Below, piece after piece: positions 39,001 to 48,000 of a DNA stretch of 53,931 nt. Source of the stretch: Myxococcota bacterium (lineage in GTDB: Bacteria; Myxococcota; Myxococcia; Myxococcales; Myxococcaceae). The stretch is from assembly GCA_049322255.1 (NCBI GenBank), contig JBMORE010000182.1, forward strand, positions 1 to 53,931, given 5' to 3'. Made by a program: the position numbers. Within the stretch, counting starts at the first letter, position 1. Each line of letters starts with the position of its first letter.

Positions 39001-42000
39001 GGTGGACAGTTACGAGCTCAAGAACATCGCCAACTGTCGCGACCGCCATCCGGGCTTCGACGCCCTGCTGGTGTTGGCGCAGGCCGGCAAGCTCCTCGGC
39101 ACCGCGCCCAAATCAAACGTTCGGATCGAGCTGCGCTACCCCGACGGCGGGCTGGTTTCGCCCGACGCGGGGCGTTAGGTCCAAACCGTATGCGCGATGC
39201 CACGTTCATGACTTTGATGAGGCTCTTGCCCAAGTCGGCGCTCTCCAGCGCCGTCGGCCTGGCCGCGCGCGCGCCGGTTCCCCGTGGGCTGCATCGGGCT
39301 GCCATGCGCGTCTTCGCTCTCCGCTACGGCGTCGACATGGGCGAGGCCGAGCACGGCTTTTCGCACTACCCGACCTTCGCGCAGTTCTTCACCCGGCGGC
39401 TCAAACCCGGCCTGCGGCCCATCGACGGCGGCGAACGGGCCATCGTCTCTCCCGTCGACGGCACCGTCTCGCAGGCTGGTGACGCCGAGGGCGGCCGCTG
39501 TTTGCAGGCCAAGGGCATCTGGTTTCCTTTGGACAAGCTGTTGGGAGACGAAGAGGAAGCCGAGCGGTTCGCCGGGGGCACCTTCGCCACCCTGTACCTT
39601 TCGCCCAGGGACTACCACCGCATTCACGCTCCGGTGGACGGAGAAATCGTCGGTTACACCTATCTGCCAGGGCAGTTTTGGCCGGTGAACCCCGTCTCGG
39701 TGCGTTCCAAGGACGCCTTGTTTTGCCTCAACGAGCGTCTGGTGACGTACATCGCCAGCGCCGCGGGGAAGGTGGCCCTGGTGGCGGTGGGAGCGACCTG
39801 CGTGGCGCGCATCCACGCCGCGTACGACGACCTTTTGACCCACGCCGGCTCGCCGCGCAAAAGCCACTTCTACCCGACGCCCAAAAAGCTCACCAAGGGC
39901 GAGGAGGTGGCCATGTTCGAGATGGGCTCGACGGTGATTCTCCTCTTCGAGAAGGGCAGGGTGCGCTGGGATACCTCGGTGGTCGAGGGCGCCGTGGTTC
40001 GTGTCGGAGGGCGAATGGGGGAGCGCGTGTGAGCCAGAAGTTCTCCGGCCCCAAGGGGATGAACGACCTGCTCCCGGGCGAGGTCGAGCTGTGGCAACAC
40101 CTCGAGCGCACCGCCAGGGAGGTGTTCGGCCGCTACGGCTACGGCGAGGTGCGCACCCCGATGGTGGAGGACACGGGACTCTTCGTGCGCAGCGTGGGCG
40201 AGACGACCGACATCGTGGGCAAGGAGATGTACACCTTCGCGGACAAGGGCGGCCGCTCGCTCTCGCTGCGCCCCGAAGGCACCGCCCCCGCCGCCCGGGC
40301 GTACATCGAGCACGCCGTGTTTCAGAAAGAGCCGGTGACGCGCTGGTACTACCTGGGCCCGATGTTCCGCTACGAGCGGATGAAGACCGGCCGCTACCGG
40401 CAGTTCTCGCAGATCGGCGCCGAGGCGTACGGCGTCGAGGGGCCCGGTCAGGACGTCGAGCTGATGGAGATGGTGGTCCACTTCCTCGGCCGCCTGGGCC
40501 TTACTGGCGTGTCGTTGCAGCTCAACTCCTTGGGCGATGACGCCTGCCGCCCCTCGTTCGTGGCCACGCTGGTGGAGTACTTCTCGGCCCATCGTGAAAA
40601 GCTGTGCGCCGACTGTCAGGAGCGCCTTTTGCGCAACCCTTTGCGCGTGCTCGACTGCAAGAACGAGCGGTGCCAGGAGCAGGCCCGCGGCGCCCCCCGC
40701 ATGCTCGAGCTGTTGTGCCAGCCGTGCCAGGCGCACTTTTCCGAGGTACGTCGGCAGCTGGAGCTTTTGGGCGTGCGCTATGAGCTCAACCCCCGCATGG
40801 TGCGCGGCCTCGACTACTACACCCGCACCGCGTTCGAGCTCATCGCCGAGCACCCGGTCTTGGGCACCGCCAGCGCTGTCGGCGGCGGTGGGCGCTACGA
40901 CAAGCTGGTCAAACAGCTGGGAGGCCCCGAGGTGCCCGCGGTGGGTTTTGCCCTGGGCGTCGACCGCCTGGTGCTGCTCCTCCGGGAGTCGGGGCAGACG
41001 TTCGCCGCCAAGCCCGACCTCTTTCTGGTCGCCGTCGATTCCAAGGCGCAGGACGAAGCGCTCCGCTGCGTCACCCAACTTCGCCACGCGGGCCTGTGGG
41101 CCGAGCTCGACGTGCGCGGAGGGAGCGTGAAGAGCCAGATGAAGCGGGCAGACAAGAGTGGCGCCCACTACGCGCTCGTGTTGGGCGAGCGGGAGTTGGC
41201 CGAAGGAGCGGCAGAGCTCAAACCCATGGCCGGGGGCGAGGGGCGAAAGGTGAAGCTCGTCGAGCTGGAAGCGGCGCTCAAGAAGTGAGGCGCCGTGTCG
41301 CAGGGTAGGGGGAAACCAGCGTGGGTTGACTACACCGGTTTGGCCCCTCGTCAGAAGTTACGGTACCCTTCCAGAAATCAACCCGCTTCGAATCCAGTGA
41401 CACGAATGAAATCCGGCCGGAGTGGATTTCAAAGACGAAGAACGGAGAGCGCGCGGTGACATTTTCACCTGATTTCGTTCCCCGCCGCGTGGAAGGCACG
41501 GAGGCCAGCCGTCTGGGAGCCGACTTCGTGCTCCTCGACTCTGCGGGGAAGATGCTTCGCGGGCTCAACGCCACCGGCGCGAAAGTGTGGGAGCTCATCG
41601 ACGGCTGCCGTTCGGCGGAGGAGATCGCCGCCCACCTGGCATCAGACGCTGGGGCTCCCCTGGAGCGCGTGCGCCCCGACGTGTTGTCTTTCCTCGGGCA
41701 GCTGTTCGACAGGAGGCTGGTGACCGGGGGTGGGCGATGAAGCGGCGTGTCGTTCTCTCCTTGTGTGTGCTCGCGGCGGCGTGCGTTGTACCTCCCGAGG
41801 CGTCCTGGGAGACTGCCCCCGCCGAGGGCCTCACCGAGGAGGCAGTGCCCACCTGGCAGGTTCCGCTGTACCGCACCGGGTGGGTTCCTCCGCTCGAGCC
41901 TCCGCCGCCTGGGTGTGAGGCCGAGCTCGTCTTCGATCCCCCCGCCCAATCGAGCGTGGGCGAGGTGCGCCAGCTGCTCATCGGCTTGAGCGTGACCGGG

Positions 42001-45000: not shown

Positions 45001-48000
45001 GAACGGGCGCCAAACGGTGGTTTTGTCGTGCAGGGCACTCCTTGGAATTCGGGTTCACCCATGCGTGCCTGGCTGTGTGAGCTCGGCACGTTGGCCTGGG
45101 GAGCGGCGCACCGCCTGGAATCGTTAGGAGCGGCGGAGCTTTTGCGCACGCTCTTGCCCAACACACTCCTCGCCGATCCTTCGCCACCAGGACGGGCGGC
45201 GGCTTTCCGCGCCGCCTCCGCGCTGCTCACCGAGGTTCCAGCGAAGACGCTCACGTTCGCTCGCAAAAACGGGCTTGGGGCGCTGCTTGCCGGGGAGCTT
45301 CCGTGAAGCCGGAGCTCTTCGTGATCGCCGGCCCCACCGCGTCCGGCAAGACGTCGGCGGCGATCACGCTCGCCGAACGATGGGGAGCGGAGATCGTCAG
45401 CGCCGACTCGCAACAGGTTTACCGGCACTTCGACATCGGTACCGCCAAGCCGTCGCCGGAGCAGCTTCAGCGTGTCCCCCACCACTTGATCTCGATCGTC
45501 GAACCCAACGAGCCCTTCTCGGCGGCACGTTTCCAGGCGTTGGCCGACGAGGCGATCGCCGGCATCGTCAGCCGTGGCCGACGGGTGCTGGTGGTGGGTG
45601 GGACGGGGCTGTACGTGCGGGTGCTTCTGCACGGGGTCGCCGTAGCTCCCGGCTCAGACCCGGCGTTGCGCGCGCGCCTTGCGGAAGAGGCGCGAGCCAT
45701 CGGCCGGGAAGCGCTCCACCGGCGGCTGGCCGACATCGACCCGCAAACGGCGGCGCAGGTCAAGCCGAGAGACCTTTTGCGCGTCATCCGCGCCCTGGAA
45801 ATCCACGCGCGAACGGGCACCCCCGCATCAATCCATCGTGCCGCGCACCGCTTCGAAGAGGATCGCTACCCCCACCGGCTTTTCGTCCTGAGCCCTCCGC
45901 GCAAGACGCTCTACGCCGCGATCGACCACCGCACCGAGGCGATGTTCGAAGCGGGCCTGGTCTCCGAGGTGCGCGGGCTGTTGGCGCGGGGCTTTCGCGA
46001 CGCGCCGCCGATGCGCAGCGTGGGCTACGCGCAGGCCCTGGCGGTGGTCGAAGGGCGCATGTCCCTCCCAGAGGCGATCGGCGAGGCGGCGCAGAAGACT
46101 CGCCACTACGCCAAGCGCCAGCTCACCTGGTTCAAGAAGGAGAGGGGTGCCCGGCGGGTGGAAAGCCCCGAAGCGCTCCTCGCGTCGGTCCTCGGTTCAC
46201 CTTGAGAGTGGCGTCGACGGCGCACGTGCCCGTCAAGACCGCCCACAGCACCGAAGCGTCGATGGGCTTGGGAAAAAACGCCTCGGCCCCTGCTGCGAGT
46301 GCCCGAGCGCGCACGTGCGGACGATCGAGACCGCTGGTGACGAGCACTCGCACCCCGCACGTGAGCGGGTGATGCTTGAGCCCCTCGCACAGACGCAACC
46401 CATCGACCCAGGAAAGGACCACGTCGATAACCACTGCCGCTGGAGGCCGGCGCGCGACCGCCGCGAAGAGCGCCAGCTCATCGGAGAAAGAGACGACCTC
46501 GGCCCCTCGCTCCTCGAGGTAGCGCGACAGCGCCTGGCATACCTCGGCATCGTCGTCGACCACGTAGACGAGGTTGGGCTCGGCTGGCACCGGGCTTACG
46601 TTCAGAGGAGCCGGGGTGAGAAGGGCCGAGCGCACCGACTCCCACAGACCCGCCGACCGGGCACAAGCCAACACGCGTCGCGGGGAGGGCGACAGAAGGC
46701 CCAATACCCCTGACCCACTCGGCGAGTGCGCTTCGCTCTTTTGTGCGCGCGCGAAGACCTTGGGAGCGCGTGCCCTCGCTCTGCGCAGCCACTTCAGCGC
46801 CCGCGCCCCGGTGGTCGCTGCATCGATCAACTCGGCCACTCCCTCGCGCGCGTAGCGGCGGGCCAGCTGCCTCGGGTCGACGCCCCCCTCGACGAGGGCC
46901 GCTGCGGCGCGGGTGCAAGTGGCAAGCGTCTGTGAGACACCGAGCGCGAGCGGGTGGCCCATCGCCGCCGGCCCCACCGCCAGCCGGCCCAAGGCAGTCA
47001 GCTGGCGGCTTGCGCCGAAGGCGAGCCGCGACATGCGAACGGCGGCGACGCTGAAGCTGGTAGGGAGGAATCCATCGCGGGCGGCCACCATCAGCGCGTA
47101 GCCCAGCGCGGCCTGGTCCACCCCCGGCCCGAAGGCCACCGCATGCACCGCTCCGCCACAGGGCAGAAGGTAGAGCCCGTCGACACCTGCGGCAGGGAAG
47201 AGCAAGAGGGTGGCGACCTCGCGCCGCGCCGTGCGTAGCCGAGGCGGCCCGTCGGAGACGATCCGCGCATGGGCAGCGCGAAGGGTGGGAGGACCAGCGA
47301 AAGAGGGGAAGAAGCGAGGGCCCAAGAGTGCGCCATGCCCCGTCGCCAGCACCACCGCGTGAAAGCGTCCCGGTCGCCGAGAGCTCACCACCAACGTGGG
47401 CTCCGCCGGCGCGGTGGACGGCACGTGATCGACACGGTCGATTCGCCCCGACACGAAGCGCGCGCCGTGCAGAGACGCCGTGGCGCAGAGCGCGCGACGA
47501 AGGAGCTCCCGTGGCGCTCTTTGTCCGTGGTGGTCGAGCACCCACAGCCCTCCGGGAGGCGCTTCGAGGCGAGCCCGCTCTCGGCCATAGGCGACTTCCA
47601 CCGCCTCGAGCGCGCCGCTGCACCATTGCGGCGGCACGCGGCAGCCGAGCGCCGACAGCCGTGAGCGGCACTCAGGGGTGAGCACCACAGGCGCCGCGGG
47701 CGCAGCGTCGCCCTCGAACAGGGTGAGGTCCAGCGAGCGCCCGCGGGCACGCGCGGCGTTGAAGAGCGCCACCGCCATCGCTGCTCCGGTGAGCCCACTC
47801 CCCCCTATGGCCACAGAAGCCCCGGCGCGCAGCCCACCCATCACGCGTGGCGCGGCGGCTCTGCCGCTTCCTCTTCGAGCACCACCACCCGGCCACGTCC
47901 GCGGCGCTTGGCTTGATTGAGCGCCGTGTCCGAGGCCTCGAGCAGCTCGCTCGCGCTGGCCCGAGACGCTTCGCGGCTGTGCCCGGCGATGCCCACGCTG

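Follow-up and report, generated by a model that had tools for sequence, protein, structure and literature searches.

What does a 44-residue peptide become when its gene lies between hisS and miaA in a myxobacterial genome, together with genes for a PqqD-like protein, a lipoprotein, a secreted propeller protein and a kinase? A preliminary description of this locus proposed a new class of RiPP, its leader bound by the PqqD-like protein and its peptide phosphorylated, or modified in another way, by an HprK-like kinase, without any protease. Here, we follow that proposal through the window (the whole stretch of DNA analysed, 53,931 nucleotides) and through related loci.

The locus and its peptide

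The five-gene cassette is genuine and conserved, and its reported gene order and coordinates from hisS to miaA are borne out by sequence and Pfam (Table 1). Overlaps of 4 nt join PqqD to lipoprotein, lipoprotein to propeller and kinase to miaA, and the peptide and kinase genes overlap by 13 nt. A promoter and terminator scan gave no signal above shuffles. The second copy on contig C32, with its 57-aa ORF (C32:27354-27527), is likewise genuine. We call loci of the window's kind, with a propeller, type A, and those of the C32 kind, with a giant protein, type B. It is important to remember that the counts given below overstate the evidence, because they include related genomes, which are not independent.

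Table 1. Features of the cassette and its flanks
Feature	Position	Strand	Basis or remark
hisS	end 41288		cassette's upstream flank
Discrete RRE / PqqD-family protein, LppB-like, 94 aa	41456..41740	+	PF05402
Lipoprotein-like ORF, 164 aa	41737..42231	+	Pro-rich linker between a signal that ends in Cys and a C-terminal domain of no known family
Secreted 685-aa propeller protein	42228..44285	+	PQQ_2, AF2 model, Foldseek
Probable ribosome-binding site AGGGA of the peptide gene	44376..44380	+	sequence
44-aa peptide ORF	44387..44521	+	
Predicted leader, residues 1-25	44387..44461	+	YxxP register as in LPP leader
Predicted 19-aa core, residues 26-44	44462..44521	+	S/T at Tyr+18, even Cys count
HprK-like P-loop kinase, LppK-like, 265 aa	44509..45306	+	HprK_rel_A below cut-off, profile matches, alignment of the catalytic domain
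miaA	from 45303		cassette's downstream flank

The peptide ORF is no chance frame, since a 41-row profile of it retrieves 92 proteins (E<=0.001) from 1.84 billion representatives and, within the 19-codon block, the third codon position differs most (0.20/0.13/0.37). Its predicted leader carries Tyr10 and Pro13 in a YxxP motif and ends in Ala23-Leu24-Ala25. Ser28 (codon 44468-44470) is core position 3 and stands at Tyr+18, a position held by Ser or Thr in 47 of 48 unique type-A peptides and in 80/86 database representatives. Among type-B peptides, 27/32 show two hydrophobic residues before the presumed cut and x-x-S/T after it; the inferred P1 residue is Ala in the type-A peptide and Leu or Phe in type B.

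The window core contains Cys33 and Cys42. Family peptides have an even number of Cys (2, 4 or 6) without exception (35/35 type A and 30/30 type B, 65/65 together), which implies disulfides and export; outside Myxococcaceae, two type-B-like peptides have 3 and 0 Cys (L150, L156). The two Cys had been called invariant, which holds for their number but not for their position, as type A alone has five spacing patterns. A natural fusion of RRE and peptide exists (P0112). A search of 8000 candidates for longer proteins carrying the peptide, such as a propeller fusion, came back empty; as evidence this is weak. A tblastn match on contig C54 (E 0.045) was rejected as a homologue because a longer frame encloses it and the peptide profiles miss it.

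The cassette is also carried by M. xanthus AM003 (locus L100), where contigs from four RNA runs in four studies cover nearly the whole locus. DNA carry-over is possible and there is no silent control, so we do not take this coverage as proof of expression.

RRE, kinase and peptidase

The closest enzymes of known activity belong to linear polyphosphorylated peptides (LPPs), which are encoded by lppA-K-B-S-D-N of Bacillota (Popov et al., Nat Commun 2026, PMC13381572). The PqqD protein matches Pfam PF05402 at 55.8 bits (cut-off 23.4), and its top PDB matches are TbiB1, PbaB1 (9x90) and LppB (9x8z). N38, D75 and F79 are invariant in 15/15 homologues and align with N33, D70 and F74 of LppB; the retention of these residues, with the P0112 fusion, supports binding of the YxxP leader by the RRE. 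The sub-threshold NCBIfam values reported earlier were reproduced (PqqD 4e-6; HprK_rel_A 7.9e-8; HprK_rel_B 6.7e-5), the kinase scoring 31.7 and 22.2 bits against HprK-related kinases A and B, under the curated cut-off of 200. So were the invariant P-loop residues S138 G139 G141 K142 S143 T144, in 47 aligned kinases. Kinase homologues were found in 87 of the 120 other family genomes searched. The kinase profile matches HPr kinase in the PDB at 3e-4, and an LppK profile matches the window kinase at 4.5e-7.

Profiles built from myxobacterial loci only were also run against 48 LPP loci: the RRE profile matched 46/48, the kinase profile 39/48 (best 1.8e-27) and the peptidase profile 38/48. In a quick IQ-TREE kinase tree of 65 rows, whose deep branches are weak, LppK forms one group (SH-aLRT 100) and the type-A kinases another (98).

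The absence of a protease is true of the window alone. An S24/SpI peptidase with a Ser/His/Asp triad occurs in 38/40 type-A loci read as far as hisS, an S24 peptidase gene (C32:28230-28985) stands at the end of the C32 interval, and kinase and peptidase occur together in 81/88 kinase-positive genomes. An SpI-like S24 peptidase thus belongs to the system, and the earlier claim is not supported. Its triad aligns with that of LppS, the C32 copy included. The window's locus lacks a peptidase, a type-A peptidase profile finds no match in the same genome (best E 0.25), and the only system peptidase of that genome is the type-B enzyme on C32. In kin, the type-B peptidase carries a fused GNAT domain.

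The propeller neighbour and a proposed pathway

The propeller protein (PQQ_2 42.8 bits, cut-off 27.6) consists of a Sec-type signal, a variable N-terminal beta domain, a beta-sandwich that appears FN3-like and a BamB-like beta-propeller. An AF2 model of residues 201-685 is nearly all beta (pLDDT 91.3, pTM 0.88), and its best Foldseek matches are BamB and eight-bladed designed propellers. The lipoprotein-like ORF is present in 47/47 propeller loci, has no Pfam or NCBIfam match, and has kin with lipobox-like N-termini. Atlas searches with it and with the propeller protein's N-terminal domain returned no named family, the lipoprotein falling in unnamed clusters only.

The preliminary description set lipoprotein and propeller aside, but of all the genes, the propeller is the most tightly linked to the peptide. 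Propeller is followed by peptide in 47/47 type-A loci, and propeller A is present in all 46 peptide-A genomes; in type B, giant protein is followed by peptide in 35/36 loci, the peptide gene beginning at, or overlapping, the giant gene's stop. Peptide and propeller remain joined after an inversion (L052), where the locus lost its kinase (L239, L240, L242-L244) and where kinase B moved (L067, L071, L167-L169, L172, L174, L178). At L236-L238, the peptide gene behind propeller A encodes a leader resembling type B, in agreement with the sole kinase found in those genomes. Adjacency is not obligatory, given seven stand-alone lipoprotein-propeller pairs without such a peptide just downstream (L245-L247, L250-L253) and PqqD-peptide(-kinase) units without an adjacent propeller (L073, L249). 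A complex prediction for the propeller (residues 315-685) and the peptide (score 0.02, mark 0.32) counts neither way.

From homology to LppB, LppK and LppS and the LPP register of the conserved Ser, the predicted cut lies after Ala25 and the predicted phosphosite is Ser28; the peptide is probably phosphorylated, clipped and disulfide-bonded. Binding of the YxxP leader by the RRE would be the first step, and a highly probable one from homology, conserved contact residues and the natural fusion. The kinase would then, very plausibly, add one or more phosphates to core Ser3 (Ser28), as LppK homology and register suggest, and an SpI-like S24 peptidase would likely cut after Ala25, here in trans from the C32 copy. 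We lean towards a fourth step, suggested by Cys parity, in which the 19-aa core exits the cytoplasm via a transporter outside the cluster and acquires a disulfide between Cys33 and Cys42. The last step is tentative: the core may function at the envelope together with lipoprotein and propeller, and in the simplest version it would be a bound ligand or partner. Here we infer core-propeller binding from gene linkage, and the propeller neighbour hints at a cell-surface role. Taken as a whole, LPP-like processing through the first three steps, together with a role tied to the surface protein, is a likely account. Some observations speak against it: the window locus has no peptidase, and the peptide of the C32 type-B enzyme has another predicted P1; the cluster holds no exporter or NTP transferase, with no signal sequence in the peptide. 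A more speculative extension, which we consider doubtful, would give each large myxobacterial surface propeller its own small phospho-disulfide peptide. After maturation in the cytoplasm by one common set of RRE, kinase and SpI peptidase, this peptide would be exported on its own and would bind as a subunit, a plug or an activating ligand.

Could the product instead diffuse freely, as an LPP-like signal or competition peptide for which lipoprotein and propeller form a receptor or self-protection module? Cores do differ among genera while leaders are fixed, and propellers without a neighbouring peptide exist, as orphan receptors would. However, the loci read contain no linked signalling or transport gene, the core is nearly constant inside Myxococcus and inside Corallococcus, unlike a strain-specific signal or toxin, and the hisS/miaA site is old and stable, whereas mobility and a patchy distribution are described for LPP clusters (PMC13381572); we consider this reading unlikely. 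A little less likely again is a cytoplasmic, phospho-regulated regulator or metal-binding adaptor for surface-protein synthesis or export, its Cys pairs binding metal. The lack of a signal peptide and of a linked exporter would suit such a role, and the type-B peptide start at the giant gene's stop would suit translational control, but Cys counts of 2, 4 or 6 and their many spacings are easier to reconcile with disulfide networks than with a single metal site, and leader/core anatomy with an RRE-dependent peptidase is a hallmark of a processed product.

It is most improbable that the cassette is a decayed radical-SAM/kinase remnant, incomplete or inactive in Myxococcaceae, whose true product needs a radical-SAM enzyme. 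Type-A leaders beside a radical-SAM-like gene (L142, L146) and the piecemeal loss of parts (L035, L037, L041, L053, L254) would agree with decay, but many genera keep the genes intact and their catalytic residues invariant, the peptide block keeps its third-position bias, and the radical-SAM gene is absent from the intact loci of either type that were read, although no search for one was made across whole genomes. LPP-like processing thus remains our preferred reading. A literature search, mostly outside subscription journals and in part by weak locus-tag queries, found no paper on the myxobacterial cassette, and the accessible parts of PMC12257519, PMC10288494, PMC12475490 and bioRxiv 2020.03.14.992123 hold nothing bearing on it.

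Comparison with known systems

Lanthionine or thioether chemistry is disfavoured, as lyase, cyclase and radical-SAM genes are lacking and Cys counts are even. In paeninodin, the phosphosite is the C-terminal Ser. Phosphorylated lasso peptides of this type share a YxxP-type leader, a discrete RRE and an HprK-like kinase with the cassette (PMC13381572), but the predicted myxobacterial phosphosite lies near the core N-terminus. In the loci read, neither the cassette nor its conserved neighbours include a macrolactam cyclase or a B2 cysteine peptidase, for which no search across whole genomes was made.

The uncharacterised radical-SAM/HprK/PqqD/S24 cassettes (HprK_rel_A, HprK_rel_B, SynChlorMet) have the enzyme core in common with ours, often beside a large secreted protein; the window, like the intact loci, has no radical-SAM gene. 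In L142 and L146, which belong to other Myxococcota families, that gene follows the kinase (CxxxCxxC, by eye). The radical-SAM-linked peptides of L149, L152 and L155 have three Cys and a Ser at the end, unlike Myxococcaceae peptides. QhpC, the gamma subunit of quinohemoprotein amine dehydrogenase, sets a precedent, as a small peptide that undergoes RRE-dependent processing and is finally bound by an exported beta-propeller protein; its maturation requires a radical-SAM enzyme, a heme subunit and an ABC exporter, none of which is present in the myxobacterial cassette.

LPP is the nearest relative, with clear differences. Its leader consensus is YxxPxVLxHQxIxFETxxS (PMC13381572), with HQ and FET replaced here by WE[QE] and ALA, and myxobacterial peptide profiles match 0/48 LPP precursors. 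LPP cores are long and Gly/Asn/Pro-rich, whereas myxobacterial cores are short with paired Cys; LPPs are tied to capsule loci, the cassette to secreted propeller proteins; the myxobacterial kinases form a separate clade; and GNAT is fused to the type-B peptidase only on the myxobacterial side of this comparison. The myxobacterial cluster also lacks both LppN and LppD: the NTP transferase LppN has no match in type-A or type-B loci, and the MsbA-like exporter LppD yields generic ABC ATPase matches only, in 4 loci. MsbA-like genes lie on contigs C103, C11 and C149, all unlinked to the cassette. NTP_transf_5 genes were rejected as a dedicated part because they occur in 61/61 family genomes, kinase-less genera included, and those of genome G000 sit in a polysaccharide locus.

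LPPs have been called Bacillota-restricted (PMC13381572), and the accessible part of that paper's peptidase dataset has four Myxococcota rows, two of them Chondromyces and none labelled Myxococcaceae. The cassette would extend LPP-type enzyme logic beyond Bacillota, as a variant in which three enzymes suffice, at a stable chromosomal site in the genetically tractable model M. xanthus, and it predicts an exact cut site, phosphosite and disulfide. This enzyme set recurs in many phyla, and the propeller link suggests for it a concrete function that can be tested. Were the peptide indeed bound to the propeller, it would be a RiPP employed as a modified component of an adhesin or receptor at the cell surface, the first function for LPP-type peptides and an unrecognised surface module for M. 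xanthus biology.

Leader binding by the PqqD/RRE protein and phosphorylation by the HprK-like kinase, as first proposed, are thus supported. The new class is not, because the logic of RRE, HprK kinase and SpI peptidase was already experimental for LPPs in 2026, and the LppA leader is cut after T-1 with Ser3 as the only phosphosite (PMC13381572). Both systems have a discrete RRE with the N/D/F residues that bind YxxP, an HprK-like kinase and, on the myxobacterial side outside the window's own locus, an SpI-like Ser/His/Asp peptidase, and neither has a macrolactam cyclase. Tyr+18 is Ser in 44/48 LPP precursors, and Cys counts are even in 22/30 Cys-bearing LPP cores. With an identical register of Tyr, Pro, cleavage site and Ser3, the myxobacterial cassette is, on sequence grounds, a variant of the LPP-like pathway rather than a separate RiPP class.

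The cassette and its two kinds of locus

The order of five ORFs between hisS and miaA that the preliminary description had proposed is borne out by reading the sequence: all five lie on one strand, four of the cassette junctions overlap, and the 44-aa ORF is preceded by a ribosome-binding site. Pfam identifies gene 1 as PqqD and gene 3 as PQQ_2; the kinase matches are HprK-related and all sub-threshold. PqqD matches, system kinases, and peptides each number exactly two in the genome, one of each lying in the window and the other on contig C32. Because cassette and genome share a GC content of 0.66, nothing suggests recent import. 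Past miaA lies a conserved pair of genes that may resemble the dmxB region of M. xanthus; judged by eye, one is oxidoreductase-like and ends in a receiver-like portion, and the other is receiver-GGDEF-like.

Coordinates of the cassette and of other regions discussed in the text
Feature	Sequence	Positions	Strand
PqqD-to-kinase cassette	window	41456-45306	
Conserved gene pair	window	46132-48854	-
Type-B site reduced to its peptidase (L254)	G047:C1	7142000-7157000	
PqqD-kinase interval with deletion (L037)	G059:C590		
Polysaccharide-type locus	G000:C104	1389-14874	

We examined 100 regions from relatives and 38 named loci; the locus counts below are not independent, as the set includes duplicates of some loci and many closely related genomes. 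Read from hisS to miaA, type A, the kind seen in the window, comprises an S24 peptidase, PqqD, the lipoprotein, a propeller protein of about 700 or 1020 aa, the peptide, and the kinase; it is present in Myxococcus xanthus AM003, Corallococcus, Pyxidicoccus, and Archangium. Type B, usually 3' of etfB-etfA, consists of PqqD, a giant Ig-like/FG-GAP protein (about 1500-1980 aa, with a lipoprotein-type start), peptide, kinase, and an S24 peptidase that in kin bears a GNAT domain. The peptide occurs in 47/47 loci with a type-A propeller on the kinase strand, and the peptidase in 38 of the 40 type-A loci extending to hisS, the exceptions being the window and locus L034. Among 36 giant-protein loci the peptide is found in 35 and the peptidase in 26; the locus without a peptide, L164, looks frameshifted. 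The kinase was present in 87 of 120 other Myxococcaceae genomes searched and, by profile, in 118/140 genomes of the family and 182/300 of the phylum.

Some loci are reduced. At the type-B site L254 the S24 peptidase alone is left 3' of etfA, with PqqD, giant protein, peptide, and kinase gone. L037 has lost lipoprotein, propeller, and leader, and a leaderless two-Cys core remnant persists directly 3' of the PqqD stop. Several independent draft assemblies (L098-L101, L103-L111) end inside the type-A kinase gene, and three RNA-run contigs stop near the same place; possibly this stretch is hard to sequence. Contigs C20, C35, C181, C178, and C132 of genome G000 carry more relatives of the type-B giant protein's C-terminal region, and no PqqD, kinase, or peptide match was found on them.

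Leader register and paired cysteines

In the linear polyphosphorylated peptides (LPP) of Bacillota, counting from the leader Tyr, cleavage falls after +15 and phosphorylation at +18 (PMC13381572). Our set of 48 unique type-A peptides, two of them from other families, was filtered with positions 0, 3, 5, and 7 fixed and one Cys required, leaving +15 and +18 free; 45 of the peptides have Ala at +15, and at +18 there are 44 with Ser and 3 with Thr. A peptide-profile search returned 92 representatives, from which we set aside five long proteins and one protein lacking the motif; Ser or Thr stands at +18 in 80 of the 86 kept, a set overlapping the 48. Because the LPP register is shared, the window peptide is predicted to comprise a leader (residues 1-25) and a core (26-44) phosphorylated at Ser28. 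Type-B leaders are different and variable in length; in 27 of 32 the last two leader residues are hydrophobic and x-x-S/T comes next.

Counted without a Cys filter from 12 residues past the Tyr, and with one ORF picked by hand in three loci that offered two candidates, cysteines number 2, 4, or 6 in 35/35 type-A and 30/30 type-B family peptides. Starting at +8 instead yields one odd value (locus L181), due to a leader Cys, and two type-B-like peptides of other families, outside this count, have 3 and 0. Among the 86 representatives, retrieved with a profile that favours two Cys, 84 have 2, 4, or 6, one has none, and one has a single Cys. LPP cores differ here, the number being even in 22 of the 30 that bear Cys. 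As the number is even and the spacing widely variable, we infer that the myxobacterial cores are disulfide-bonded and hence exported. In L034, L037, L041, and L239 a secreted thioredoxin-like (AhpC-TSA/TlpA) gene lies directly 3' of hisS, ahead of the cassette, and may bear on disulfide handling.

Surface protein, peptide, and enzymes

In the 685-aa protein, the conserved region is modelled with high confidence as a beta-sandwich plus a BamB-like propeller, a predicted likeness of fold alone that implies no function. A type-A propeller is present in 46/46 genomes with a type-A peptide. Six propeller genomes have no type-A peptide match; in the three opened (L236-L238), a peptide with a type-B-like leader sits directly 3' of the propeller. 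Eight genomes keep the type-A peptide and have, in place of a close type-A kinase, a weaker-scoring type-B-like one; in the five opened, the peptide adjoins the propeller with no kinase beside the pair. An inversion at L052 has shifted lipoprotein, propeller, and peptide as one block. Given this co-occurrence, the kinase-less pairs, and the L052 block, surface protein and peptide make up the unit that is most stably kept, whereas the enzymes seem to be shared in trans. Against obligatory pairing stand seven lipoprotein-propeller pairs with no peptide next to them, as well as L073 and L249, where PqqD and peptide have no propeller alongside.

Kinase and peptidase occur together in 81 of 88 kinase-positive genomes; the other seven are six fragmented or incomplete assemblies and one marginal kinase match. 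Six genomes, G048 among them, have the peptidase without the kinase.

In L142 and L146, from other Myxococcota, the leader is the same and a radical-SAM-like gene accompanies it; the cassette of Myxococcaceae may thus belong to a wider family, as a branch that has no radical-SAM gene. Kinase and radical-SAM-like genes, with PqqD and S24, recur in other Myxococcota families (L142, L145-L149, L152-L154, L158, L159), and these loci often adjoin secreted proteins of 1000-1400 aa.

Comparison with linear polyphosphorylated peptides

In LPP, LppB is a discrete RRE to which the YxxP leader binds, LppK an HprK-like kinase that phosphorylates core Ser3, and LppS an SpI-like Ser/His/Asp peptidase that cleaves after T-1 (PMC13381572). 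Profiles built from myxobacterial genes only, run against 48 LPP loci selected by the published leader motif, matched LppK in 39, LppS in 38, and LppB in 46; those for the lipoprotein, propeller, and giant protein found nothing similar in the same loci. The peptidase triad aligns with that of LppS, the C32 copy included. In the myxobacterial RREs, the residues corresponding to those with which LppB, in its structure, grips the Tyr and Pro of the leader are invariant. In database protein P0112 (167 aa), a type-A RRE and a complete type-A peptide are joined in a single reading frame; unless mis-called, this apparent fusion supports the RRE-peptide pairing.

The polysaccharide-type locus on C104 of G000 contains two NTP_transf_5 genes, echoing the capsule link of LPP, and an LppN-like step might be provided by them in trans; the Pfam family is found in 61/61 Myxococcaceae genomes searched, including G048. 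In supplement 2 of PMC13381572, row 197 is an acidobacterial protein of 3031 aa whose N-terminus is an SpI-like domain; an RRE gene lies close by, and the entry again links this peptidase to very large proteins.

No study of the myxobacterial cassette was found in the literature searched, and myxobacteria go unmentioned in the main text of PMC13381572. In outline, the chemistry has probably been described already; what is new is the predicted disulfide-rich core, the link to a surface protein, and the presence in M. xanthus. The cassette probably works like LPP but departs from several of its defining features, namely the leader consensus, LppN, LppD, and the kinase lineage; for this reason we class it as a variant resembling LPP rather than a member.
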